64,000 nucleotides of DNA, from the IMG/VR virus record IMGVR_UViG_2778261375_000003; one strand, 5' to 3'. The notes beneath the pieces were generated by a model. The model did not search any database and was not told where the DNA came from. It worked only from the letters and a program-made list of their open reading frames with translations. Position numbers and translations under genes: made by a program. Of the stretch, positions 34,975 through 58,757 are shown piece by piece (the first letter of the stretch is position 1; each line of letters starts with the position of its first letter). This DNA comes from a virus (lineage: Duplodnaviria; Heunggongvirae; Uroviricota; Caudoviricetes).

Positions 34975-35226
34975 TTGTCGCTGGTGGTAACGATGGGAAA
35001 AATAACTTTTGTAGTCGAATTTGAGGATGGTAAAGAGCCACCTGTTAGCGCCAATCTTGATGTTGCTGGTGGCAGGCTTGTTTCGGTTCTATTTGGTGAC
35101 TACCGAGATGACTTCTTCCAACCAGAAGAAGTTGATGTAGTGCGAGAGGCATTAAACGAGTTAAGTGTTGATAACGATGATGCTCATGCGGAAATCATCC
35201 AAAAAATGGAACTGCTAACTCACTAA
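34975..35226 (+). CDS. Hypothetical protein
   Basis: 83-aa ORF. Confidence 0.4.
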   Translation: MSLVVTMGKITFVVEFEDGKEPPVSANLDVAGGRLVSVLFGDYRDDFFQPEEVDVVREALNELSVDNDDAHAEIIQKMELLTH

Positions 35227-35308
35227 ATTATCAATTATGGTGCTATCACCTACGACACCGAGAGAAAATTTATAATGTCAAAAGTAAATGTTTTGATTTT
35301 TTCAGCAA

Positions 35309-35698
35309 TTGTTGGCTTTGGTTTTACTGCCGGAGTGCAGATTTATATTACGTGGGAAAAAATCATCAACTACGCATGGAGTTGTTTTATTAAGTGAGGT
35401 AAGTATGTGGAGAGGTAATAGTCATGGCAAAAGCCAGATGATACTTACCGAATATAAGCTAGACCACAAAACCAATAAATCACGTTCAGTATATTTGCTC
35501 CGGCACAATAGCCGCGTAAGAAATACCGTGCTGGAACAAAATCTGACAGTTGAAATGGATAATTACGGGGGATTCAAGCCAACAATTTCACTTGATGATT
35601 TTCCTCGTGGTTTAAGCGAAAGAGAAGCAATGCTGAAATTAGCAGAATGGCTACAAAGATTAAGCATTGCTATTGAAGATAACTGGTCTGAACCTTAA
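35309..35698 (+). CDS. Hypothetical protein
   Basis: 129-aa ORF; start may be internal. Confidence 0.4.
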   Translation: MLALVLLPECRFILRGKKSSTTHGVVLLSEVSMWRGNSHGKSQMILTEYKLDHKTNKSRSVYLLRHNSRVRNTVLEQNLTVEMDNYGGFKPTISLDDFPRGLSEREAMLKLAEWLQRLSIAIEDNWSEP

Positions 35699-35704
35699 AT
35701 TTAT

Positions 35705-36079
35705 ATGATGACACTAAAACATTTTCTTGACCGCCCATTATGGGCGGCAGCCGCAGGCTATGACTTTAATTATATGGATTGCATGTCTTATACCGCCAAT
35801 GCATACGACTATTCCTTCAGTCTGCTGCTTAATTCTTTAAGAATATTGCCGCAAACAGAAGTTGGAGAGATTCATTTATGGCTATTGGGCTTTATCGCGG
35901 CTGGAGTTGGTATTGCTGTATGGCCTTTTATTTTCTGGCTGGTGGCTGTTGTAGTGTGGTTTAAGTGCAAGACGTACCGGAGAAAGTATTTCTTAGGTGA
36001 TGGAATGACTGATATTGCCAAAATGAACATTGAAAAATGGACTAAGGAATGTGAAAAGAAATGGCGCAAAAAGAAATGA
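35705..36079 (+). CDS. Hypothetical membrane protein
   Basis: Hydrophobic helices WLLGFIAAGVGIAVWPFIFWLVAVVVWF. Confidence 0.4.
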   Translation: MMTLKHFLDRPLWAAAAGYDFNYMDCMSYTANAYDYSFSLLLNSLRILPQTEVGEIHLWLLGFIAAGVGIAVWPFIFWLVAVVVWFKCKTYRRKYFLGDGMTDIAKMNIEKWTKECEKKWRKKK

Positions 36080-46819: not shown

Positions 46820-47041
46820 ATGGGATATTCAGCTGCTAAAGTGTCCACTCATATTGAGCTTGAGAAAAACCGTGGTTACTGGCGGGCAAAAGGGTTTGAT
46901 TGTGATAGTTGTCAACTGTCATTATCGCGCGGTGAAGAGAAAATAGAACGCACGCGCGGTCGCTGGCGTTTCTATGACGAGAACCATAAACAGGTAAAGG
47001 CAGAGCCGATCCTGTACACTTTACTTAAAACCATTATCTGA
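46820..47041 (+). CDS. Hypothetical small ORF in the loxP-cre spacer (may be non-coding promoter region)
   Basis: 73-aa ORF; no recognisable motif. Confidence 0.25.
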   Translation: MGYSAAKVSTHIELEKNRGYWRAKGFDCDSCQLSLSRGEEKIERTRGRWRFYDENHKQVKAEPILYTLLKTII

Positions 47042-47048
47042 GTGTTAA

Positions 47049-48080
47049 ATGTCCAATTTACTGACCGTACACCAAAATTTGCCTGCATTACCGGTCGATG
47101 CAACGAGTGATGAGGTTCGCAAGAACCTGATGGACATGTTCAGGGATCGCCAGGCGTTTTCTGAGCATACCTGGAAAATGCTTCTGTCCGTTTGCCGGTC
47201 GTGGGCGGCATGGTGCAAGTTGAATAACCGGAAATGGTTTCCCGCAGAACCTGAAGATGTTCGCGATTATCTTCTATATCTTCAGGCGCGCGGTCTGGCA
47301 GTAAAAACTATCCAGCAACATTTGGGCCAGCTAAACATGCTTCATCGTCGGTCCGGGCTGCCACGACCAAGTGACAGCAACGCTGTTTCACTGGTCATGC
47401 GGCGGATCCGAAAAGAAAACGTTGATGCCGGTGAACGTGCAAAACAGGCACTAGCGTTCGAACGCACTGATTTCGACCAGGTTCGTTCACTCATGGAAAA
47501 TAGCGATCGCTGCCAGGATATACGTAATCTGGCATTTCTGGGGATTGCTTATAACACCCTGTTACGTATAGCCGAAATTGCCAGGATCAGGGTTAAAGAT
47601 ATCTCACGTACTGACGGTGGGAGAATGTTAATCCATATTGGCAGAACGAAAACGCTGGTTAGCACCGCAGGTGTAGAGAAGGCACTTAGCCTGGGGGTAA
47701 CTAAACTGGTCGAGCGATGGATTTCTGTCTCTGGTGTGGCTGATGATCCGAATAACTACTTGTTTTGCCGGGTCAGAAAAAATGGTGTTGCCTCGCCATC
47801 ATCCACCAGCCAGCTATCAACTCGCGCCCTGGAAGGGATTTTTGAAGCAACTCACCGATTGATTTACGGGGCTAAGGATGACTCTGGTCAGAGGTACCTG
47901 GCCTGGTCTGGACACAGTGCCCGTGTCGGAGCCGCGCGAGATATGGCCCGCGCCGGAGTTTCAATACCGGAGATCATGCAAGCTGGTGGCTGGACCAACG
48001 TAAATATTGTCATGAACTATATCCGTAATCTGGATAGTGAAACGGGGGCAATGGTGCGCCTGCTGGAAGATGGTGATTAG
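47049..48080 (+). CDS. cre: Cre tyrosine recombinase
   Basis: 343 aa beginning MSNLLTVHQNLPALPVDATSDEVRKNLMDMFRDRQAFSEHTWKMLLSVCRSWAAWCKLNNRKWFPAEPEDVRDYLLYLQARGLAVKTIQQHLGQLNMLHRRSGLPRPSDSNAVSLVMRRIRKENVDAGERAKQALAFERTDFDQVRSLMENSDRCQDIRNLAFLGIAYNTLLRIAEIARIRVKDISRTDGGRMLIHIGRTKTLVSTAGVEKALSLGVTKLVERWISVSGVADDPNNYLFCRVRKNGVASPSSTSQLSTRALEGIFEATHRLIYGAKDDSGQRYLAWSGHSARVGAARDMARAGVSIPEIMQAGGWTNVNIVMNYIRNLDSETGAMVRLLEDGD; matches P1 Cre as I know it. Confidence 0.95.
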   Translation: MSNLLTVHQNLPALPVDATSDEVRKNLMDMFRDRQAFSEHTWKMLLSVCRSWAAWCKLNNRKWFPAEPEDVRDYLLYLQARGLAVKTIQQHLGQLNMLHRRSGLPRPSDSNAVSLVMRRIRKENVDAGERAKQALAFERTDFDQVRSLMENSDRCQDIRNLAFLGIAYNTLLRIAEIARIRVKDISRTDGGRMLIHIGRTKTLVSTAGVEKALSLGVTKLVERWISVSGVADDPNNYLFCRVRKNGVASPSSTSQLSTRALEGIFEATHRLIYGAKDDSGQRYLAWSGHSARVGAARDMARAGVSIPEIMQAGGWTNVNIVMNYIRNLDSETGAMVRLLEDGD

Positions 48081-48130: not shown

Positions 48131-48442
48131 ATGAGAAAGGATTTCAACATCGACGGAAAATATGTAGTGCTGTCTGTAAGCACTAATATTCAGTCGCCAG
48201 CCGTCATTGTCACTGTAAAGCTGAGCGATAGAATGCCTGATATTGACTCAATATCCGTTGCGTTTCCTGTCAAAAGTATGCGTAGTGCTGAACATTTCGT
48301 AATGAATGCCACCGAGGAAGAAGCACGGCGCGGTCTTGGTAAAGTGATGTCTGAGTTTGTCGAATTTCTGGGGCTCGTTAACAAAGCCCTCACAATCAGT
48401 TCAGCAAGGTCCAAAGCGTTAACAGCTTCCATGATGAAATAA
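48131..48442 (+). CDS. cra: Cre-associated small protein (assigned by position)
   Basis: 103-aa ORF directly after cre. Confidence 0.45.
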   Translation: MRKDFNIDGKYVVLSVSTNIQSPAVIVTVKLSDRMPDIDSISVAFPVKSMRSAEHFVMNATEEEARRGLGKVMSEFVEFLGLVNKALTISSARSKALTASMMK

Positions 48443-48689: not shown

Positions 48690-49250
48690 ATGAAAACAAT
48701 CGAACAAAAAATTGAACAGTGCCGCAAGTGGCAGAAGGCAGCCAGAGAACGAGCGATCGCTCGGCAACGGGAGAAGTTGGCTGATCCGGTCTGGCGAGAA
48801 TCTCAATATCAGAAAATGCGGGATACTATCGACCGCCGTATCGCTAAACAGAAAGAGCGCCCACCAGCCAGCAAAACGCGGAAAAGCGCGGTAAAAATAA
48901 AATCTCGTGGCTTGAAGGGGAGAACACCAACGGCGGAGGAACGGCGCATCGCCAATGCTCTTGGCGCTCTCCCCTGCATTGCCTGCTACATGCATGGAGT
49001 AATATCTGAAGAGGTGTCTCTGCACCATATCTCCGGTCGTACCGCGCCGGGTTGTCACAAAAAGCAATTGCCCCTTTGCAGATGGCACCACCAGCATGCA
49101 GCACCGGCTGAAGTAAGAGAAAAATACCCTTGGCTGGTCCCTGTTCATGCCGATGGTGTGGTTGGAGGCAAGAAAGAATTCACCTTGCTGAACAAGTCAG
49201 AGATGGAGTTACTGGCTGACGCCTATGAGATGGCAAACATCATGCACTAA
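48690..49250 (+). CDS. ref: Recombination enhancement function (HNH endonuclease)
   Basis: 186 aa MKTIEQKIEQCRKWQKAARERAIARQREKL...; HNH-like CIACYMHG ... HH ... CRWHH. Confidence 0.85.
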   Translation: MKTIEQKIEQCRKWQKAARERAIARQREKLADPVWRESQYQKMRDTIDRRIAKQKERPPASKTRKSAVKIKSRGLKGRTPTAEERRIANALGALPCIACYMHGVISEEVSLHHISGRTAPGCHKKQLPLCRWHHQHAAPAEVREKYPWLVPVHADGVVGGKKEFTLLNKSEMELLADAYEMANIMH

Positions 49251-49411
49251 TAAATATATTATTTTTAATGATAAATGATTGACAACTGACAAGTGACTTC
49301 AGTCAGAATCATCACACGCCCGGTACGGATGGATCCCTTTTCAAATATTCCATGGACGGCACAGTCTGAGTACCGGGCGCTACCTTCAGTTGTATTGCTA
49401 AGCCGCCGCTG

Positions 49412-50080
49412 GTGGCTTTTCTTTTTTGTAGGGGCGCTATGGATAAGAAAATATGCGTTGTTTCGATGAGCGTCGGCAAACCGGCGTCAATGACTGCTGC
49501 ATGGATCAATAACGAGCTGATAATGGCTGAGCGGACCAGCTACCCTGAACGCCGCCGCGACATGGAACTCCAGCTGCTGCGCGAATTGCGAGAAAAAGAG
49601 GAAAAGGGTTTTATCGTGCTGGTGGAAGAGGAAAACAGCTTTATTACTGGTCGAGTTGGCCAGCGTGTAAGGTTGCGCGATCCCTTCATGAACGGCAGGC
49701 CGGTACTAATTGAGGCAATGCAGATTTATAAGGAGCTGGAACGCCAGAAAGCAATCAAGTTACCGCGCAAGGAATCCGGCAAATACATCCTCCACCAAAG
49801 CATCTTCGATTCCGAACACGATAAAAAAGGCGATGAATTTTTCAACATCAATTGGAGCGAAATAACGACAGAGCATGTTCTGACGTTACTCTGTTGCTTT
49901 GCGACGGAATACAACAACGTTGCCAGCGCCGACTACATCAGGGCAATGGCTTGTGAAGTGGATAGTCGTGATGACTCATCGCTGATAGCGTCATATATAA
50001 ACATCATCAAGAAAACTCAAATTATGGGATGCGCTAGAGTTCCTCAAGGAATACTCACCGGAAAGAATAATATTCTATAA
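49412..50080 (+). CDS. mat: Particle maturation protein (assigned by position after ref)
   Basis: 222-aa ORF; start may be the internal MDKKICVV. Confidence 0.45.
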   Translation: MAFLFCRGAMDKKICVVSMSVGKPASMTAAWINNELIMAERTSYPERRRDMELQLLRELREKEEKGFIVLVEEENSFITGRVGQRVRLRDPFMNGRPVLIEAMQIYKELERQKAIKLPRKESGKYILHQSIFDSEHDKKGDEFFNINWSEITTEHVLTLLCCFATEYNNVASADYIRAMACEVDSRDDSSLIASYINIIKKTQIMGCARVPQGILTGKNNIL

Positions 50081-50123
50081 CCTACGAAGGTTATTTGTTA
50101 CTTTCTGCGTAAACCTACAACTA

Positions 50124-50145
50124 ACCTTCCTAAGTTAAGGAAGGT
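50124..50145. terminator. Hairpin between convergent mat and the DUF2971-like gene
   Basis: ACCTTCC-taagttaa-GGAAGGT. Confidence 0.4.
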
Positions 50146-50177
50146 ATTTATCATGAAGTGTAGACATAAGCGTATTA

Positions 50178-51218
50178 TTACATGGGCTTAACCACAACCT
50201 TTCCGTATATATCAAGTTTTGAATGTAATACGTTGACGTGAGACAATTCTTTATTCGAACTAACTTTATCTAAAATTATATTTTTATCTTTTTCAGTCAT
50301 GTTATACCCTAAGGTAATTTGCTTGAATGCAGAAAAAGGAATTTTCTTTAAGTTAATTTCATGATAGTCATGAAAAACATCAGGATACTCATTTAATAGG
50401 CAGTCATCAATCGATGGAGAGACAATGCTTCCTATTTTTCTCTCGCAATCAGCCAATGGAAAAATAATTCTACTTTCATTTTCAGGAAGCCACTCTTCAC
50501 CTTTTGTATAAAGAAGCCTATTAATAAAAAGCTCGCGAACTGAATCTCGATTTAAGATCCCATGCAATGTATTATCTTTATTCTTTATATCTATATTCCT
50601 CGATGGCGCAGGATAGCCATTAAATCGCACAGCGCCTTTATAATAGGTTACAGATGCTCTATCTTCTGGATTATAACTAACATCACACGGCCGATATATT
50701 TTGAAAAAATCGTGTGTTTCATCGAAAACTACAGCAAACCCCTTTCCTATCGATGCATAATGAGTCCACATGTGTAGATTGCAATCACTTTTTGATAGAG
50801 AGAACACACCAAGATGACAGCTTACGGCTTCTACTAAATAATCGTTAAGGTACGTTACTATTTCTTGGAGTTTAGATTCATCATATGAATCCATTGAGGT
50901 AAAACCTTCATTGATTAACAAGTGTGGAAAATCCTCTCCGTATCGTTTCCCGCAAGGTTTTAAATAATACTCTAACTCTTGTATAGATGGGACATAAGAT
51001 GGATCTCGTTGCATTTTCTTAAATTCATTTCTAGCCCATGCGTAATCGGCTGGTGAAAATTTATTAAAAAATGGAAGAAGTCGCGACTCACTCGACGGAT
51101 CATTAAGATACTTTGGTTGCGTTGCTCTAAAGAAACCATCCTCCAGACAAGATGTTCTAATGTGCATGCCCGGCCAAGGTTTATCCATATAACTCTCGCC
51201 TATATATTTAACTAACAC
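50178..51218 (-). CDS. DUF2971-like protein (candidate single-gene defence cargo); ATG at 51188 is the likelier start
   Basis: 346-aa ORF (GTG at 51218, or ATG at 51188 after GGCGAGAG). Core HLGVFSLSKSDCNLHMWTHYASIGKGFAVVFDE matches the DUF2971 signature as I recall it. Visibly AT-rich compared with flanking backbone. Confidence 0.6.
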   Translation of the reverse strand: MLVKYIGESYMDKPWPGMHIRTSCLEDGFFRATQPKYLNDPSSESRLLPFFNKFSPADYAWARNEFKKMQRDPSYVPSIQELEYYLKPCGKRYGEDFPHLLINEGFTSMDSYDESKLQEIVTYLNDYLVEAVSCHLGVFSLSKSDCNLHMWTHYASIGKGFAVVFDETHDFFKIYRPCDVSYNPEDRASVTYYKGAVRFNGYPAPSRNIDIKNKDNTLHGILNRDSVRELFINRLLYTKGEEWLPENESRIIFPLADCERKIGSIVSPSIDDCLLNEYPDVFHDYHEINLKKIPFSAFKQITLGYNMTEKDKNIILDKVSSNKELSHVNVLHSKLDIYGKVVVKPM

Positions 51219-51270
51219 TGTATGTCGATCCTGTTGTTTAAGCCCATATCATATGGGCTTTAAATGATTA

Positions 51271-51519
51271 TTAATCAGCATTCAGAAGCAATGCGTTATC
51301 TATGATGATCTGCTCCCATTCTTCGAATGCCCGATCGCGGACACCTTGGGGAACACTGTTAGTTTTGAAATCGACGACCGTCCGCCATTTCCCGTCCGGG
51401 CGGTACATGCGCAGAGCTTTACTTCCCCCTTCCCTGCGCACCTCAACGTTATGCTTGTCAGCAAACTCTTGTAATGCTCGTAGCGTCCCATGCTTTACTG
51501 TGTAGTATCGCTTTTTCAA
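51271..51519 (-). CDS. lxc: Lxc/Bof-like C1 co-repressor (assigned by size and position)
   Basis: 82-aa ORF immediately downstream of ulx and upstream of the mat/res-mod position. Confidence 0.5.
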   Translation of the reverse strand: MKKRYYTVKHGTLRALQEFADKHNVEVRREGGSKALRMYRPDGKWRTVVDFKTNSVPQGVRDRAFEEWEQIIIDNALLLNAD

Positions 51520-51956
51520 GTTTTCTCTCCAGCCTGTGCCAAGGCTTCAACTTCCAAATCGTAAGACTCAAACTCATAGTCCTGGTCGTCAACTTCTTCA
51601 GGCACTGGCAGTAAATGCCAGGCTGAGTATATCTGACCATTATCAAAACGCTCCTGGCTGTAGAGCGTCGCGGCTATGAGTGTTAGCGCCGGGCGGTCAT
51701 AACGGTAAATTTTGCGAACGTCACGGTCAACGAGACGACCGAAATTACCATAACCGCGCTCCAGTAATAATTTTTTAATTTCCGGCCAGTATGGACCATA
51801 GCTGCGGTACAGGCGGGGATTTTTCAGTAATCGCCCGCGTAGCCCTGACAGGAAGAAATCAACGTATTCGTCTTCTGTCTTTCCTAACAACGCCGTACGC
51901 AGTACCGCCTCAAGATATGTTTTATTCGGTTTTATTGTATCAGATAGTGTGGCCAT
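51516..51956 (-). CDS. ulx: Ulx-like protein (upstream of lxc)
   Basis: 146-aa ORF between darB and lxc, overlapping the lxc start by 4 nt. Confidence 0.5.
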   Translation of the reverse strand: MATLSDTIKPNKTYLEAVLRTALLGKTEDEYVDFFLSGLRGRLLKNPRLYRSYGPYWPEIKKLLLERGYGNFGRLVDRDVRKIYRYDRPALTLIAATLYSQERFDNGQIYSAWHLLPVPEEVDDQDYEFESYDLEVEALAQAGEKT

Positions 51957-51989: not shown

Positions 51990-54900
51990 TTATGCGTATT
52001 GTTGGATGACGGCCAGAACGTCCGCCACGTTGTGTTTTGTCTCGATAATCCACCAGTTACCCGGGAAATCGCTGTTCTTTGCCTTCGCTGGCAGCCAGCG
52101 AGCGCCGAATTTCGCCTTGATTGCGTCTTTCGCACGGAAAAGAATGCCTTTCATGCCGGACGCCTCCTGAAGCCCAAATACCTCGCCAGCGGCGAATTTT
52201 GGTGCGTACATCATCTTCAGGTCGGCGGTGGATACGCGATAATTCAGACCAAGAGACTGAGCTATGCTGGTGGCATCACCCTGTATTGATGATAACTCTT
52301 CTTGTTTCTCGTTTCTGGCGGCAATTTCTTCCTCCGTGATGTTGCCAAGGGCCAGGTTTATCCGATCAGCGTCTGCCTGTTTCTCTTCATCGGTGCGCCC
52401 GGCAAGTACCGTGTTAATTCTGTGCAATATCTCCACATGATTCTTGCGCATGCTGAGCAATTCCGGCGTAACCTCGTTAAGGTCCACCAGCCCAAGGATG
52501 GCAAGGTCGGTAAACATTGATACCAGGTTGTAGGTCATGCGATAGCTGAGTTGCCCATAGGCTGATGGCAACTGCACCGCATCCATTTGATAGGCATCCA
52601 TAAATTTAGAGCCGTCGTTTACGACATCCGCAATTGCCGGTGTGATTTTCCCTGTGGTGGCGGCCTCCCTGATTGCTGTTACCCACGATTGAGTCAGCGC
52701 GGCGACTGCATGATTCAGATTGGCTTTCCGTTCTGCTGCAATGCGCGCGCTTGCTGCGTCCATTGCCTGCTTGATCTCGTCTTTATTGCTGTAAATGCCA
52801 ATGGTGCCAAACTGTGCTGTGGTGATCTCATAATCTGACGCCCGGAACTCATTGGTACCGAAAATGGCATTGGTGACTTCAAGTTCAGAATCCCCGTTAC
52901 GAGTAGCCCCCTGGCTTGTTTTCTCCGGCATTCTGGCGATCGCATCCGCTATTTTCTCCTGAATTGCTTCAGGGGATAGCGTATCTCCGTATGACGCGAT
53001 TACATCGCCATAATTGGAGCCAAACAGTTCAACCAGGAATGCTTCTGCCGAACGGATCTGGCGGTTATTCCCTTCCGACATCATACCAAGCACCCATTTT
53101 GCAATTGACGACTTCAGCGCGCCGTCACGGCGATCCGGGTAAACCGCATGCTTCAGTGGGTCCGTATAGGTACCAACAAAATCAATGCTATAGCCTGACT
53201 CTGTAGTCTGAACGCCGTATGAGTCAGTGATTTTGATCATGCCGCGCTGCTGGAAACGGTAGAAATCGTCACAGGAAACGATGTCGTTAATCCCGGCGAT
53301 GGAGACGCCACCACTGATTTTCTGCATAACAGCATCTTCATCGGGAGTTACATCAACCTGTTTATCCAGCGTCTTCACATCCCAGTTACCCGATTTGGTG
53401 CCTTTGAAGGTAAAGATGATCTCCACATCTGCGCGCTGGCTGTCGAAGTCCAGCGACTTAATGCGAACGATATCACCAGCACAATCATAGTATTGGCCTA
53501 CACGCCATGAGCGATCGCCGATAACAAGGAACTCACTCGCATGGTTAACCAGGTCAGGATCAACATCCAGAATGCCTTTATTTATTGCATCCTCCACCAG
53601 CGGGCGCAGGCGTTTGATATCCGTCGCGGCCTTCTGAGTACGGTTCAATAATTTCTCATAGCGGGAGATGGCTTGAGTGATATTAGCCTTGCGCTGAATG
53701 GCGCTTTTCAACGACGCGCGATACTGTGCTAACAACATACGGTCTGTGTGATGGACGCTACCCCAGCGGGCTTTCCAGTCTGCGTTATCAGCTGCTTTGG
53801 CCATTACCGCCTGTTTGAATTTAGCTACCTCGGCGGTGGTCTTTTCAAGTTCCGCTTTGCTTCGCTCTAATTCAGCGGTAAGTACCTCCACATCCTCGCC
53901 AGCTGCGTGCTGCGCCTTGATGTAGTTCTGAAGGTCGATAGTAGCCTGTTCTTTCTGGCGAGCGCGTTGCGCGGCTTTCGCCTTATCCATTTGAACCTGC
54001 ATCATTGCCAGACGTTCGCCATCATCCTTAGCGGTATACATCTGCATTTCGATCATATCGTTGGCGTCGGCGTTCTCCATTTCTGACTTATCTGAACGGA
54101 GGATATCGGAGATCCAGCCTGCTTTACGCTTCAGCGTCTTCAGTCGGTATTCATCGAAAGAACCCTTGCCGCAGTAGTAGTGAACGCGAACGCTTGCACG
54201 GTTGGAGCCAACTCGGGCACCGCGACCGTTTCGTTGCGCAATACTGGCTGGAGTCCATGGCAACGTCAGATGATGGATGTCAGTCGTTCCTCGATGCAGG
54301 TTGATACCCACCTCTGCCTTTTTGTTGCAGATGATGATCGGAGTCCGGCCCTCCTGGAAGTCGGCTGCAATCTTTTCCAGACCGCCCAACGACATTTCAT
54401 TTTGCTGCGCGATATAGGCGTCATACAGAGCCATTTGCTCGTTGTATTTCGCTATCTGTGCATCTGTTGGTTCATCCGGTAACTCTTTCGGCGGTTTAAC
54501 CGCTTTCAGTTTCTTACCGGTTTTACCTGCCTCGGCAACCGTCTGAGCATTCAGTATCCCCACCTTTGAAGGTTCAAGGTTAAGAGCATTGCAGATAATG
54601 CGCTTGAGCTTCTGGTGCTGCGTTTTTTCATCGGTGAAGATGATTTGCTTACCTTCCGGGAAAAACTCCTTCAGCGTGGCAATCAGCTTCGCGTATTTGG
54701 GCGTAACGGGGTGAGTTACGGTCTGTTCGTCAATGCCAAACCTGGCCAGGCGCTTATTCACTTCCTGCTCGAACGCTTCCGGAACCTGCAACTGAATAAA
54801 CTCGCCCTTATCTATCAGGGAGTATTGCGATTGCTGCGTGATTGAATCATCACTGTCGTCGTCTTCGCTGGTGGCTTGTTTAGGCAAACTGTCTGCCAGC

Positions 54901-57900
54901 TGCTGCACCGCATCGGCGTACTCCGGCAGGAAACGATAGGTGATCCGGCGATAGTACAGGTCCATGTCAGTACATACGCGGTCCATATCCCTGATTATTG
55001 AGAAGATCGGACGGGCTTTCTCGTGCTCAATCACGCCGTCTTCATTGACCGAGGTCGTTACACCATTGTTGGCTTTGGCCGCCGCTTCCGCCTGCTGACG
55101 CAATTCTTCATACGCCGCCAGTTGTTCTTCAGTAAGTGGTGCATCCTGCTGGTGTTCGTCCAGTTCCGGGATCTCCACGGTATCCTTAACGTCTTCCGCC
55201 GTTTTAAGCGTTGTCCAGCGATGGAATATGCCGCGCAGCGCATCAAGGTTTTCAAAACCCACCAGCGCCATTTTTTCTTCAACTTCGCCGCTGATTTTCT
55301 GTACCGTTTCCAGCCTGGTCTTGCCGAAGAATTTAACGAAGTCATCAGGACCGTAGATCCCCATCTTCTGCCAGTATTCCTTCGGCAGAACATGAGAAAG
55401 CATGTTGTATGCATCGATCGGGGTGTTAACGACTGGCGTTGCAGTCAGGAGAACCGGTCCACGCCCACCATTCTTTTTCATCAGGTACGCGTTTTTGATT
55501 GCCATATCTCGCGCCGATTGCGCCACCGCGCTGGTGGGCAGATAGGCCAGCTGTGACGCTTCGCGACCATTTTTATAGCTATTGCGGTAGTTGTGGCCTT
55601 CGTCAGCAATCACGCTGTCGAAGCCCATATCCTCAAAGTACGGATACTTCTCTGCTTTTTCGGTACCGGTATCTGAATACTCCGACAATACCCGGCGACG
55701 CGCCGCCTCTTTGCGATGGGAATCGGAGTCCATTGCGCTGGCCACACGCCCGGCAGCAACGAAGTCATAAAGCATGTCTTGTGCATGCTCATCTACGGTG
55801 TCATCACGTAGCGGAATGCGGGCGTATTGTTCTTTGGTAAACACGACTGCACGGTAGTTTGAGTGCGGGATCGCGTTCATCCGCGCCGTGATAGTGGCTT
55901 CATCTGCCAGCTTAAGAGCATCGCGCATAACTGGAGTGCCATCAGTACCAAGAACAGGTTTACCGTTCTCATTGAGCACCGGCACCTGGCGAATCTGATC
56001 GCCATCCATCAGCACATCAAGACCGACGAACAAGTAGTTACTGAATGCCTCTTCACTCAGGAATTCTTTTGCTTCGTAATACCAATTTTCCAGCACTGAT
56101 TTAGGCACTACATACGCAGTACGGGTAGAGCGACCGTTCTCATAGTTGAACGCCTCAAGCGCCAGCGCGGTCGTGGTTTTACCCAGCCCGGTGCCGAAGC
56201 CCAGGATGCCGCGCCCATCTTCGGACAGTCGGCGCACCTCGCTATTCTGGTAATCAAATGGCTGGCGCTTACCGCTTAATCCCTTCAACCCAAGCGGATC
56301 GCCAGAGTGTTCATACGGGATATTGCTATTGAACACATCGTTGTATTTGGCAACCAGCTCATCGTAGCGATCGTGCGTCTTGATCCACTTATTGAACTGG
56401 TCCTCAAGCAGTGCCATCTGCTCGCGGTAGCCGTTCGCCGTCGCGCTATCTTTGCCACCGATACGCGCACCATTGAGATACTTTTCCAGCTGTGCCGGGA
56501 ACCCGGTCGCGTTTTCACCCGATTTACGGTCCCACTCGTAGCGGATCTCGCCTGTTTCTTTATCCTTGCGCTGGACGACACCGTATCGGTGCCCGACGAA
56601 CAGACCATCACCACCGTGATAGGTGTCAGAAACCATTTCGTCGCCTTCCAGCTGCACTGACTGCACATAGCGCAGATCCGGATAGCCGTTTTCCTGCAAA
56701 AATTCCAGAATGACGGAGCGGTCGAACCAACGGCTATTGAGCTTAAAGCGAATATTCTCTGCTGACGTCTTGATGCGCTTCTCTTCGATCGCTGCCAGCT
56801 GATTAAGGACGTTGTTCTTTACTGGACCGTCGGGGAGTGTGGCAAGAAATTCCTGTTTTGGAGCCACTATCTCGTTAATGTCGCCGCTGGTGGCGCGGGC
56901 GAACGGAACAATCCCGCCATACGGTGAAACCGCAATACCAGGGGTGCTGGCCAATAAATTAAGCAACTCTTCATCACTGGCTGGCAGTTCGCCGGTAAAC
57001 GCAAAGCGGAAATCATCGAGCTGGATTGGATCGCGGGTAAGATCGCTATAGAGATAACGCAGGGTGTCCTGATAGCTGGTGGAGTCATAACTGGCGCTGG
57101 AATCATGCGTAACCAGCTTTCCTGTCAGCTCGTCAGAAATAGTGCCATCCAGCTTAATCGCACCACGGAAAGCAAACCAGGCGCGCGCACCGCTCCCCGA
57201 CAATTTCGCTATCGGACCGCGACCGGGGTTACCAAAACGGTCAATCTCTGCCTGCAAACGGGATACCAGAGAAAGGCGCTGCTGTTCGATTTGTTCAGCA
57301 CTATGCCCGGCGGCCTTCATGTCCTGATATTCAATTAACATCCGGCCAATCATCGCCCCGCGATACAAGCGTTCACGGTATTTTTCAGGCTGGCTGTTAA
57401 TCCAGTCCACCAGCTGCACCATATCGTCGCTGATTGATGTGGTGTACTTATCGCGGACATTTGCCATCTGGGTAAATGTCATGCCGAGACGGCCTTCTGT
57501 TGTAGTCAGGTTACGCTGAAGAGCCTCCCAGCTATCCGCGCCATAACTGGCAGCATCGATCTTAAGTTCCTTCCCGGCATCAGCTTCAATCCAGCGACCA
57601 CCAGCATATTTTTGCCATACGCCATTAATCAGGCGCATTTCCCCTTCACCAACAACGTCTGCGGTCGGTGACGGTTCAGCCATATCGAGCAAAGACCAGT
57701 CGATACGGCTTTCGAAACGATGAATCAGCTTCGCTTTAAGAGCCTGGTTATCAATCTGACCGTCGGCACGAACCTCAATACGCCCCTGGAAGCCCTTTTC
57801 CTGGGTGCCATGAACAAACCGGCGGCCGTCCTTTTCAAACCACTTGCCAGAAATAAACGTTGGCCAAAGCACATTTGCCGATTCGAGAGTGCTTTCATCC

Positions 57901-58757
57901 ACCAGGGGGATTTTCTCAGCCATCTCTGCCGGATGTTTGCGCATCAGCACCACATCTACGACCGTACTGGTCCCGTTAGCGTCAAAAGTACCGGTAGGCA
58001 AGCGGTGGGCACCAAGAAATTCAGCTTTCCGTGATAGGCGCAGGCGTAACCGCTTCATGTTTGAACCTGAAACAATGGACGGCGGCACAATCACGCACAT
58101 GAATCCGCCTGGCTTTATCTTGTCCAGCATGCGGAGCATGAAGTAAGAACCCATGTCCGTTTCTTCTGCGTAAGGCTTATCGATGTTGCGTGTGTTATCA
58201 CGACCACCGAACGGAACGTTACCCACAACATGGTCGAATGAATCGTTAGGCGTGCTTACAGCCAGTTGTTCGAACGGAGAAATCTGTACGCTGTCTTCCG
58301 GGTGCAACAGCTGGTTTATACGACCGGAAACACTGCTGATCTCAGTCGCGGTCATCACCGTACCAACCGGTTTTGTCTCATTAAAAACGCCGGTTCCCGC
58401 CGATGGTTCCAGAGTGTTACCTACGTCCGCGCCGTAGAGCTTCATGATCTCCCAGACACCTTCAGCGATCGGCTTTGGTGTGTAATATTCGGAGACGGAC
58501 CCGCCAATGCCGCCTTCGCCGGTGTACCCAGCCAGGATCTGGCGCTGTTCATCTGTCAGTGTCGCGCCGTCCACCAGCGAATTAAGCAAATCTATCGCCT
58601 TCTGATTCGCCTCCCGGCGTAGTCGGTCATAGCTTTTGCCTTCCACCTTTTCCACGCCGTATCTAATCGGCGCTCGGTGAGATGTTATTGCCCTAATGTA
58701 TTTCAATATTTCGCTGACACTTGAACAGCGAAACACCCCTATAGATAGCTTGTTCAT
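51990..58757 (-). CDS. darB: DarB defence-against-restriction protein (methyltransferase plus helicase domains)
   Basis: 2255 aa; N-terminal MTase-like motif GNVPFGGR; helicase Walker A GTGLGKTTTAL and DEGH box VIADEGHNYRN; size matches P1 DarB. Confidence 0.9.
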   Translation of the reverse strand: MNKLSIGVFRCSSVSEILKYIRAITSHRAPIRYGVEKVEGKSYDRLRREANQKAIDLLNSLVDGATLTDEQRQILAGYTGEGGIGGSVSEYYTPKPIAEGVWEIMKLYGADVGNTLEPSAGTGVFNETKPVGTVMTATEISSVSGRINQLLHPEDSVQISPFEQLAVSTPNDSFDHVVGNVPFGGRDNTRNIDKPYAEETDMGSYFMLRMLDKIKPGGFMCVIVPPSIVSGSNMKRLRLRLSRKAEFLGAHRLPTGTFDANGTSTVVDVVLMRKHPAEMAEKIPLVDESTLESANVLWPTFISGKWFEKDGRRFVHGTQEKGFQGRIEVRADGQIDNQALKAKLIHRFESRIDWSLLDMAEPSPTADVVGEGEMRLINGVWQKYAGGRWIEADAGKELKIDAASYGADSWEALQRNLTTTEGRLGMTFTQMANVRDKYTTSISDDMVQLVDWINSQPEKYRERLYRGAMIGRMLIEYQDMKAAGHSAEQIEQQRLSLVSRLQAEIDRFGNPGRGPIAKLSGSGARAWFAFRGAIKLDGTISDELTGKLVTHDSSASYDSTSYQDTLRYLYSDLTRDPIQLDDFRFAFTGELPASDEELLNLLASTPGIAVSPYGGIVPFARATSGDINEIVAPKQEFLATLPDGPVKNNVLNQLAAIEEKRIKTSAENIRFKLNSRWFDRSVILEFLQENGYPDLRYVQSVQLEGDEMVSDTYHGGDGLFVGHRYGVVQRKDKETGEIRYEWDRKSGENATGFPAQLEKYLNGARIGGKDSATANGYREQMALLEDQFNKWIKTHDRYDELVAKYNDVFNSNIPYEHSGDPLGLKGLSGKRQPFDYQNSEVRRLSEDGRGILGFGTGLGKTTTALALEAFNYENGRSTRTAYVVPKSVLENWYYEAKEFLSEEAFSNYLFVGLDVLMDGDQIRQVPVLNENGKPVLGTDGTPVMRDALKLADEATITARMNAIPHSNYRAVVFTKEQYARIPLRDDTVDEHAQDMLYDFVAAGRVASAMDSDSHRKEAARRRVLSEYSDTGTEKAEKYPYFEDMGFDSVIADEGHNYRNSYKNGREASQLAYLPTSAVAQSARDMAIKNAYLMKKNGGRGPVLLTATPVVNTPIDAYNMLSHVLPKEYWQKMGIYGPDDFVKFFGKTRLETVQKISGEVEEKMALVGFENLDALRGIFHRWTTLKTAEDVKDTVEIPELDEHQQDAPLTEEQLAAYEELRQQAEAAAKANNGVTTSVNEDGVIEHEKARPIFSIIRDMDRVCTDMDLYYRRITYRFLPEYADAVQQLADSLPKQATSEDDDSDDSITQQSQYSLIDKGEFIQLQVPEAFEQEVNKRLARFGIDEQTVTHPVTPKYAKLIATLKEFFPEGKQIIFTDEKTQHQKLKRIICNALNLEPSKVGILNAQTVAEAGKTGKKLKAVKPPKELPDEPTDAQIAKYNEQMALYDAYIAQQNEMSLGGLEKIAADFQEGRTPIIICNKKAEVGINLHRGTTDIHHLTLPWTPASIAQRNGRGARVGSNRASVRVHYYCGKGSFDEYRLKTLKRKAGWISDILRSDKSEMENADANDMIEMQMYTAKDDGERLAMMQVQMDKAKAAQRARQKEQATIDLQNYIKAQHAAGEDVEVLTAELERSKAELEKTTAEVAKFKQAVMAKAADNADWKARWGSVHHTDRMLLAQYRASLKSAIQRKANITQAISRYEKLLNRTQKAATDIKRLRPLVEDAINKGILDVDPDLVNHASEFLVIGDRSWRVGQYYDCAGDIVRIKSLDFDSQRADVEIIFTFKGTKSGNWDVKTLDKQVDVTPDEDAVMQKISGGVSIAGINDIVSCDDFYRFQQRGMIKITDSYGVQTTESGYSIDFVGTYTDPLKHAVYPDRRDGALKSSIAKWVLGMMSEGNNRQIRSAEAFLVELFGSNYGDVIASYGDTLSPEAIQEKIADAIARMPEKTSQGATRNGDSELEVTNAIFGTNEFRASDYEITTAQFGTIGIYSNKDEIKQAMDAASARIAAERKANLNHAVAALTQSWVTAIREAATTGKITPAIADVVNDGSKFMDAYQMDAVQLPSAYGQLSYRMTYNLVSMFTDLAILGLVDLNEVTPELLSMRKNHVEILHRINTVLAGRTDEEKQADADRINLALGNITEEEIAARNEKQEELSSIQGDATSIAQSLGLNYRVSTADLKMMYAPKFAAGEVFGLQEASGMKGILFRAKDAIKAKFGARWLPAKAKNSDFPGNWWIIETKHNVADVLAVIQQYA

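Follow-up and report, generated by a model that had tools for sequence, protein, structure and literature searches.

The mat-lxc interval of P1-like phage-plasmids is a cargo hotspot, one occupant of which, a DUF2971-family gene, may encode a single-protein anti-phage effector

In this work, we describe a 1308-bp cargo cassette found in a 64-kb stretch of a P1-like phage-plasmid (IMG/VR record IMGVR_UViG_2778261375_000003; hereafter the window, in whose coordinates positions are given). The cassette bears a single minus-strand gene for a DUF2971-family protein and lies between mat and lxc, where P1 carries the type III restriction-modification (R-M) genes res and mod. The results show that the DUF2971 cassette is one of many interchangeable cargos in the mat-lxc slot of P1-like phage-plasmids, and that this slot is a genuine cargo hotspot in which defence genes predominate. 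By analogy with characterised systems, the DUF2971 protein may act as a prophage-encoded single-protein anti-phage effector of the abortive-infection (Abi) type, the likeliest of the readings considered below and one to which we give about an even chance of being right.

Results

IMG/VR was scanned with Lxc as the anchor, and 73 of the 80 loci obtained contained both flanks and were clustered; their mat-lxc intervals fell into 13 sequence clusters (Table 1). The alleles of the DUF2971 gene at these loci are all intact (10/10), with no more than 11 nt differences. A second set comprised the 704 PLSDB plasmids matching the mat..ulx flanks: 85 of them bear the full DUF2971 cassette, and others have at the same place proteins annotated as SIR2, RelA/SpoT, GNAT or PIN. 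The initial annotation of the window had supposed that a lone, foreign-looking gene sits here at the res-mod position of P1, in a variable slot rich in defence genes, and both suppositions proved correct. It had also named, as an outcome that would speak against its reading, the presence of the gene in all P1-like genomes, including those with res-mod; the counts above show instead that the gene is an alternative to res-mod and not its companion.

Table 1. Occupants of the mat-lxc interval at 73 IMG/VR loci
Occupant	Loci	Size or locus	Matches
SIR2	11 + 2		PADLOC/Pfam: SIR2_2, PDC-S25 / ThsA-like
DUF2971	10	always 1308 bp	
Empty site	8	149-157 bp	
GNAT	7	202-aa acetyltransferase	
Type III res-mod	7	5.2 kb	
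PIN_12 protein	6		PADLOC: PDC-S34
RelA/SpoT	6 + 3		PADLOC: PDC-S33, 8e-87
3.7-kb cassette	4	L004:10248-13927, L021, L032, L033	
YaaC-like and weak nucleoside-deoxyribosyltransferase-like pair	4	L014:10250-12065, L042, L052, L060	
EAL-domain protein and AraC-type regulator	4		
Lipoprotein-like	1	132 aa	

By a hotspot we mean a position at which conserved flanking core genes enclose many alternative, mostly defence-related cargos; mobile-element defence hotspots were reportedly defined in P2/P4 by Rousset et al. in 2022. The mat-lxc interval combines its 13 types with identical flanks and an empty site, and the known or candidate defences among its cargos are type III R-M, CapRel, SIR2/PDC-S25, PIN_12/PDC-S34, JukA and DUF2971/PDC-S31. 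All the cargos have a G+C fraction (GC) of 0.32-0.43, and the empty site one of 0.52. The RelA/SpoT cargo protein is 100% identical to CapRel of phage SJ46, in which the gene order is mat-RelA/SpoT (CapRel)-lxc-ulx-darB, and CapRel-SJ46 is an experimentally proven anti-phage defence (PMC9712102). The 3.7-kb cassette encodes JukA (PADLOC, 1e-65), a helix-turn-helix protein and a 370-amino acid (aa) ANT/ORF6N antirepressor-like protein. In the YaaC-like pair, one protein has 346 aa and matches PF14175 (1.5e-45), and the other has 169 aa and matches nucleoside 2-deoxyribosyltransferase weakly, below the threshold; neither was matched in the PADLOC search, and the two possibly form an unrecognised defence pair.

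Parts of this picture have been on record. The res-mod genes are known as the low-GC "variable region 1" of P1-like elements (PMC9603915), and a list of P1-borne defences includes type III R-M, CapRel, dGTPase and PrrC, the accompanying DefenseFinder v1.3.0 survey of P1-like elements not having the DUF2971 protein among the systems found (bioRxiv 10.1101/2025.09.12.675607). Our full-text literature search found no paper that explicitly names mat-lxc a defence hotspot or mentions the DUF2971 cargo.

The limits of the cassette were established by blastn against the P1 reference (NC_005856). The window is 97-98% identical to P1 up to position 49962 (P1 3350, within mat), and the identity returns at 51271 (P1 9750, the lxc stop codon), so that the 1308 bp stand in for 6.4 kb of P1 made up of res, mod and the IS5 element interrupting mod. 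The initial annotation, which had placed the insert at 50100-51270, had put its left border too far to the right, since the swapped segment starts at 49963 and takes in the last ~39 codons of mat. The C-terminal peptide encoded there is homologous to that of P1 Mat yet diverged, and still ends in the VP.G.LTGK motif. Moreover, these codons co-vary with the cargo type, each cassette having its own diverged mat 3′ end that keeps this motif, and in every cargo variant examined in the multiple alignment the right breakpoint falls directly after the lxc stop codon. The co-variation of mat 3′ alleles with the cargo suggests that old cassette lineages have been swapped by homologous recombination within mat, and not by site-specific insertion.

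Two observations were made in passing. At the other end of mat, the start region annotated in P1 (P1 2716..2790) is not open at the corresponding 49337..49411 of the window, where an in-frame stop occurs 10 codons in; the sequence common to P1 and the window begins around MDKKICVV, so mat may in reality start downstream of the position annotated in P1, or Mat of this lineage may differ at its N-terminus. A 100%-identical cassette is present in NZ_AP025206.2 (locus L002, 10015-13171), where the homology to the window ends ~2.1 kb into darB and is followed by cydB and cytochrome bd genes, with IS26/intI1 upstream of the cre side; NZ_AP025206.2 appears to be a rearranged and probably defective P1 derivative.

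The gene itself is the only one between mat and lxc, and neither res nor mod was found in this interval of the window. Its GC is 0.31-0.39, vs. about 0.45-0.53 in the flanks, and no other kilobase of the window has a GC as low as that of the bin 50001-51000 (0.344). A scan of the cassette for open reading frames (ORFs) of at least 25 aa outside the DUF2971 gene gave none, i.e., no partner ORF, and the Rfam scan of the cassette gave no family, its sole match being a chance-level miRNA. In RefSeq/PGAP, the gene starts with the ATG at 51188 and encodes 336 aa (WP_032219104.1). We dropped this start because the N-terminus MLVKY, encoded from the GTG at 51218, is common to nearly all aligned homologues (36-54% identical); most probably, GTG 51218 is the true start, and the database protein is 10 codons short. 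With this start, the initial annotation was right in describing a single minus-strand gene at 50178..51218 (346 aa) that is AT-rich against its surroundings, and all three motifs it quoted are in place (GVFSLS at aa 137-142, MWTHYA at aa 150-155, GKGFAVVFDE at aa 158-167). The backbone had been described less exactly: mat and lxc-ulx-darB do flank a slot devoid of res-mod, and the order on the left is cra-cre-c8-ref-mat, not cre-cra-ref-mat.

The cassette had been thought to be bracketed by two hairpins, the first of which is located exactly as given (50124..50145). It is terminator-like on the plus strand and is likely to serve as a bidirectional terminator. The second, a perfect 21-nt palindrome (AAGCCCATAT-C-ATATGGGCTT), is real as well, its position being 51240..51260 instead of 51241..51261; no U-tract follows it on the minus strand, 21 nt separate it from the start codon of the DUF2971 gene, and the promoter scan of the minus strand upstream of the gene revealed no sigma-70-like site. 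The idea that the hairpins, as attC-like or similar elements, mark a mobile cassette was rejected, since each cargo type examined, and the empty site as well, has a GC-rich hairpin of its own just after the lxc stop, and since both hairpins are located where terminators are required between convergent or tandem genes. They are ordinary intergenic terminator-type elements.

As for the protein family, the assignment to DUF2971 made in the initial annotation was upheld by Pfam (PF11185, 28.4 bits vs. the gathering cut-off of 22), aa 150-251 covering positions 1-89 of the 89-position model. The protein also matches PHROG 1762 (2e-71), a family of no known function, and no NCBIfam family was found for it. 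Four PADLOC models of PDC-S31 match with E-values of 3e-16 to 1e-6; the PDC systems are a set of 145 candidates drawn from genes located within loci of BREX, DISARM and type I R-M (bioRxiv 10.1101/2024.01.29.577857). The best match, to PDLC04994 (3e-16), extends over aa 120-183, and that to PDLC04990 (2e-14) over aa 118-324, corresponding to positions 92-238 of 259 in the model. Because the matches are partial and moderate, the protein is best regarded as a sister branch of the clusters modelled as PDC-S31 and not as one of them.

A search of 5.8 billion proteins returned 76 clusters of homologues, all of ~350 aa and 36-54% identical over the full length, most of which carry precomputed PF11185 matches. 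Those with names are mostly gammaproteobacterial (Klebsiella, Serratia, Salmonella, Citrobacter, Enterobacter, Vibrio and Shewanella). Conservation was computed on 59 aligned homologues 37-52% identical; three of the four PDC-S31 models match 59/59 of them, and the fourth matches 54. Across this alignment, 27 residues are invariant, including T33, S140, W151, Y154, K239, W243, E246, E248 and R250, and R31, L141, H153 and A155 are conserved in at least 90%.

The AlphaFold2 model of the protein is confident (pLDDT 92.6, pTM 0.87) and has four parts: N-terminal strands, a helical insert of ~80 residues (56-135), a beta-rich core (136-255), and a C-terminal alpha/beta domain (260-346). Structure comparison recognised an ADP-ribosyltransferase (ART) beta-sandwich, with DarT and Tpt1 as the nearest relatives and with moderate scores; Foldseek gave no significant match in PDB and BFVD. 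The core is thus modelled as an ART fold closest to the nucleic-acid-modifying ARTs DarT and Tpt1. Candidate residues for a three-motif ART active site (R31, S140, Y154 and E246-x-E248) lie on the secondary-structure elements expected for the ART motifs, as judged by sequence and DSSP. The strand 29-31 would contribute motif I (aromatic-R-x-T), the end of strand 136-142 motif II (S-x-S), followed by helix 148-154 with the WxHYA motif, and the helix-to-strand junction with E246 and E248 motif III, the putative catalytic ExE. The motif assignment and the fold agree with a bioinformatic study that proposes DUF2971 as an ART family similar to DarT, AbiGi and Tox-ART-HYD1, in which motif II has a strictly conserved Tyr and an ExE motif is present (PMC12522546).

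Finally, we inspected where the gene and its homologues reside. Of 5,426 complete E. coli genomes, 62 (about 1%) have the P1-type allele, and plasmids bear 63 of its 64 copies. The homologue from Salmonella enterica (49% identical; L091:7001-8050) is a lone opposite-strand gene between gpV (baseplate) and gpS (tail) of a P2-like prophage, which is a classic moron position inside the P2 late operon, and that from Serratia lies, together with three unknown genes, next to smpB where a P2/HP1-like prophage ends. The Klebsiella homologue belongs to a small islet, where it adjoins a 509-aa AAA_15/AAA_21 (ABC-type) ATPase and a 221-aa protein; in Vibrio cyclitrophicus (L092:7001-9100), the gene is carried by a conjugative plasmid, immediately upstream of one for a PIN_12 protein, and in Shewanella it is located on the chromosome, where the neighbouring genes give no clue. 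These contexts in prophages, islets and plasmids therefore show that, like defence genes, the DUF2971 gene recurs as a stand-alone cargo on temperate phages and plasmids. We also note that on the Vibrio plasmid two cargo types of the P1 slot, DUF2971 and PIN_12, are found side by side.

Discussion

The closest precedent for the function proposed here is Aristaios, a 316-aa DUF2971 protein encoded by the Lactococcus plasmid pUCCL641, which is a single-gene system of the abortive-infection type with a predicted ART fold (PMC11381338) and interferes with phage transcription (PMC13064643). Both proteins belong to DUF2971 (PF11185), are similar in size, are encoded on plasmids or mobile elements by a single gene without a partner, and have a predicted ART fold over much of their length, so that the window gene has the make-up of a DUF2971 protein acting alone, the action itself being predicted. 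By analogy, the Aristaios phenotype, i.e., Abi-type resistance with an effect on phage transcription, would be the phenotype expected here. The two differ in the host phylum and in the phages concerned, Aristaios was assayed from a high-copy vector, and the P1-slot subfamily (~350 aa, MLVKY, Gammaproteobacteria) forms a separate tight clade. Two statements of the initial annotation have to be revised in this light: the family was said to have no established function, and has since been proposed as a DarT/AbiGi-like ART family (PMC12522546); a single-protein anti-phage function was called undescribed, and Aristaios has been shown to be a single-gene Abi (PMC11381338, PMC13064643), with PDC-S31 as a further PADLOC candidate. 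Both statements are outdated for the family and still hold for this protein and the enterobacterial subfamily to which it belongs.

Other known systems resemble the DUF2971 gene in part. PDC-S31 is likewise a single-gene candidate linked to it by the profile matches; these are, however, partial and moderate (the best within the subfamily is 1.8e-21), and the definition of PDC-S31 goes back to loci of BREX, DISARM and type I R-M instead of phage-plasmids. Our full-text literature search found no paper containing "PDC-S31". DarT of the DarTG system is an ADP-ribosyltransferase that modifies thymidine or guanosine in single-stranded DNA. The DUF2971 protein is ~130 residues longer than DarT, with the large helical insert and the extra C-terminal domain, and its gene has neither a DarG macrodomain antitoxin nor any other partner beside it, the neighbours being mat and lxc. 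CapRel-SJ46 occupies the same slot in a sister phage-plasmid and is a single polypeptide made up of an enzymatic toxin and a regulatory/sensor part of its own, an architecture that we propose by analogy for the DUF2971 protein. Its RelA/SpoT-type enzyme pyrophosphorylates tRNA and is unrelated in fold and chemistry to the ART-like core, and its trigger is known to be the major capsid protein (PMC9712102). EcoP1I, the res-mod system of P1, shares the locus, the orientation of lxc and the low GC, and it is expressed in the lysogen and protects against incoming DNA; in contrast to the DUF2971 cassette, it is a two-gene R-M system of 5.2 kb, and it has no homology to the DUF2971 gene.

Based on these comparisons, a course of events may be outlined. 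Cassettes would replace one another through recombination in the conserved flanks, on one side within the 3′ end of mat and on the other at the lxc stop codon. In the lysogen, the gene would be expressed through read-through from the ulx-lxc operon promoters, as we infer from the 21-nt spacing between the palindrome and the GTG, the failure to find a promoter on that strand, and the lack of a U-tract after the hairpin. Since no antitoxin gene is encoded, the helical insert and/or the C-terminal alpha/beta domain of the protein itself may hold the enzyme inactive (cf. the fused CapRel). On infection by another phage, the protein, if it behaves like DarT and Aristaios, would ADP-ribosylate DNA/RNA or the transcription apparatus at the expense of NAD+, thereby stopping phage gene expression and development.

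Several points weigh against an anti-phage function. At the sequence level, the likeness to Aristaios is drawn from the shared Pfam domain, and PDC-S31, to which the protein has partial matches (the best over aa 120-183, the longest over 118-324), is itself only a candidate. DarT family models were not matched in the PADLOC and Pfam searches at E-values up to 1, with only PDC-S31 and DUF2971 returned, and the subfamily profile gave 0 matches among all PDB sequences even at E = 10. The catalytic motifs were assigned from sequence and secondary structure only. Furthermore, the slot is not purely defensive, since GNAT, EAL plus AraC and lipoprotein cargos occur in it too (L005, L016 and L025), and the proximity of the anti-restriction genes ulx and darB makes a role in phage offence conceivable.

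Phage-encoded ARTs with roles in host takeover are well established, such as Alt, ModA and ModB of T4, and an ART of this kind could modify the host RNA polymerase, translation factors or defence proteins to aid the lytic growth or establishment of P1. The ART-like fold fits such a role, as does the location of the gene, which directly follows the anti-restriction/regulatory block of ulx, lxc and darB on their strand. We nevertheless consider it unlikely: the slot is otherwise occupied mostly by defence systems (type III R-M, CapRel-SJ46, SIR2, JukA), homologues are found beside ATPase or PIN proteins in non-phage islets of the chromosome and on a conjugative plasmid, no viral protein in BFVD showed significant structural similarity, and the one DUF2971 protein characterised so far is an Abi that protects the host (PMC11381338). 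That the gene is instead a non-defence or non-catalytic accessory cargo or a neutral passenger, with a degenerate or ligand-binding core, hitch-hiking in a recombination-prone low-GC slot, seems improbable to a similar degree. The 27 residues kept unchanged in 59 homologues despite just 37-52% identity argue against it, and so do the nearly invariant R31 together with S140, Y154, E246 and E248 at the expected ART motif positions, the intactness of all alleles, and the independent recurrence of the family as cargo in several types of mobile elements.

Low-copy plasmid prophages commonly carry addiction modules, e.g., phd-doc of P1, and the element studied here is such a prophage. With 63 of 64 E. 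coli copies on plasmids and an ART fold closest to the toxin DarT, the protein could be a stabilisation or competition toxin engaged in post-segregational killing or in the exclusion of rival plasmids or P1 relatives, and not in defence against lytic phages. We think this very unlikely, given that the cassette has no antitoxin gene, partner ORF, DarTG-type macrodomain partner or known antisense RNA, and that the homologues in integrated P2-like prophages need no addiction.

Going beyond the proposed anti-phage function, we tentatively suggest, with more doubt than confidence, that the MLVKY subfamily comprises self-contained sensor-effectors, i.e., DarT-like nucleic-acid ARTs without an antitoxin, which the insert and the C-terminal domain hold off until a phage component releases them, and that the mat-lxc slot, with its YaaC-like and deoxyribosyltransferase-like pair, GNAT, and EAL plus AraC cargos, is an unexploited platform for enterobacterial defence discovery comparable to the P2/P4 hotspots.

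What is new in this analysis is the exact limits of the cassette, the demonstration that mat-lxc is a defence hotspot common to CapRel-SJ46 and EcoP1I, and the hypothesis on the catalytic residues. Should the anti-phage function be true, a gene present in ~1% of complete E. coli genomes and ~12% of P1-like plasmids, whose current annotation as a "DUF2971 domain-containing protein" gives no function, would gain one, and the Aristaios/DUF2971 class of defence would extend from Lactococcus to Enterobacteriaceae and temperate phages. E. coli genetics and well-characterised coliphages could then be used to find the trigger, target and control of a DarT-like enzyme that has no antitoxin. The establishment of mat-lxc as a defence hotspot would provide a short list of further candidate genes, and P1-like lysogens would differ in the phages they exclude, which is relevant to phage therapy and to P1-based tools.

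Other Features of the Window

A P1-type backbone extends across the window. The genes from cra to mat are on the plus strand, followed by lxc, ulx and darB on the minus strand; their coordinates are collected in Table 2 along with those of the cassette and of the candidate motifs. The z-scores of the hairpins compare the folding energy of the RNA with that of shuffled sequences.

Table 2. Features of the mat-lxc region in window coordinates
Feature	Position	Strand	Basis
cra	46820..47041	+	
cre	47049..48080	+	
c8	48131..48442	+	
ref	48690..49250	+	
Conserved part of mat, one hotspot flank	49412..49962	+	P1 homology
Swapped cargo cassette, 1308 bp, in place of P1 3351..9749 (res, mod::IS5)	49963..51270		blastn breakpoints
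Diverged mat 3′ end, last ~39 codons, part of the swapped segment	49963..50080	+	blastn and C-terminal peptide comparison
Hairpin, 8-bp stem, between the convergent mat and DUF2971 genes	50124..50145		dG -11.9 kcal/mol, z -3.2 (+); -12.0 (-)
DUF2971-family gene, 346 aa, GTG start at 51218	50178..51218	-	
E246-N247-E248, candidate catalytic ExE (ART motif III)	50475..50483	-	E246, E248 invariant; helix-to-strand junction
W151-T-H153-Y154-A155, WxHYA motif	50754..50768	-	W151, Y154 invariant; helix 148-154 after the S-x-S strand
S140-L141-S142, candidate ART motif II (S-x-S, beta-strand end)	50793..50801	-	S140 invariant, L141 at least 90%; strand 136-142
F30-R31-A32-T33, candidate ART motif I (aromatic-R-x-T on beta strand)	51120..51131	-	R31 at least 90%, T33 invariant; DSSP strand 29-31
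Perfect 21-nt palindrome AAGCCCATAT-C-ATATGGGCTT, between the lxc stop and the DUF2971 start	51240..51260		dG -12.1, z -3.7
lxc, other hotspot flank, conserved; upstream of the cargo gene, same strand	51271..51519	-	98% identity to P1 lxc
ulx	51516..51956	-	
darB	51990..58757	-	

The second-lowest GC kilobase of the window is 35001..36000 (0.396). It contains small plus-strand ORFs, one of 129 aa and one of 124 aa with hydrophobic stretches that looks membrane-associated by eye, and it may be a further part of the P1 backbone that varies or holds cargo.

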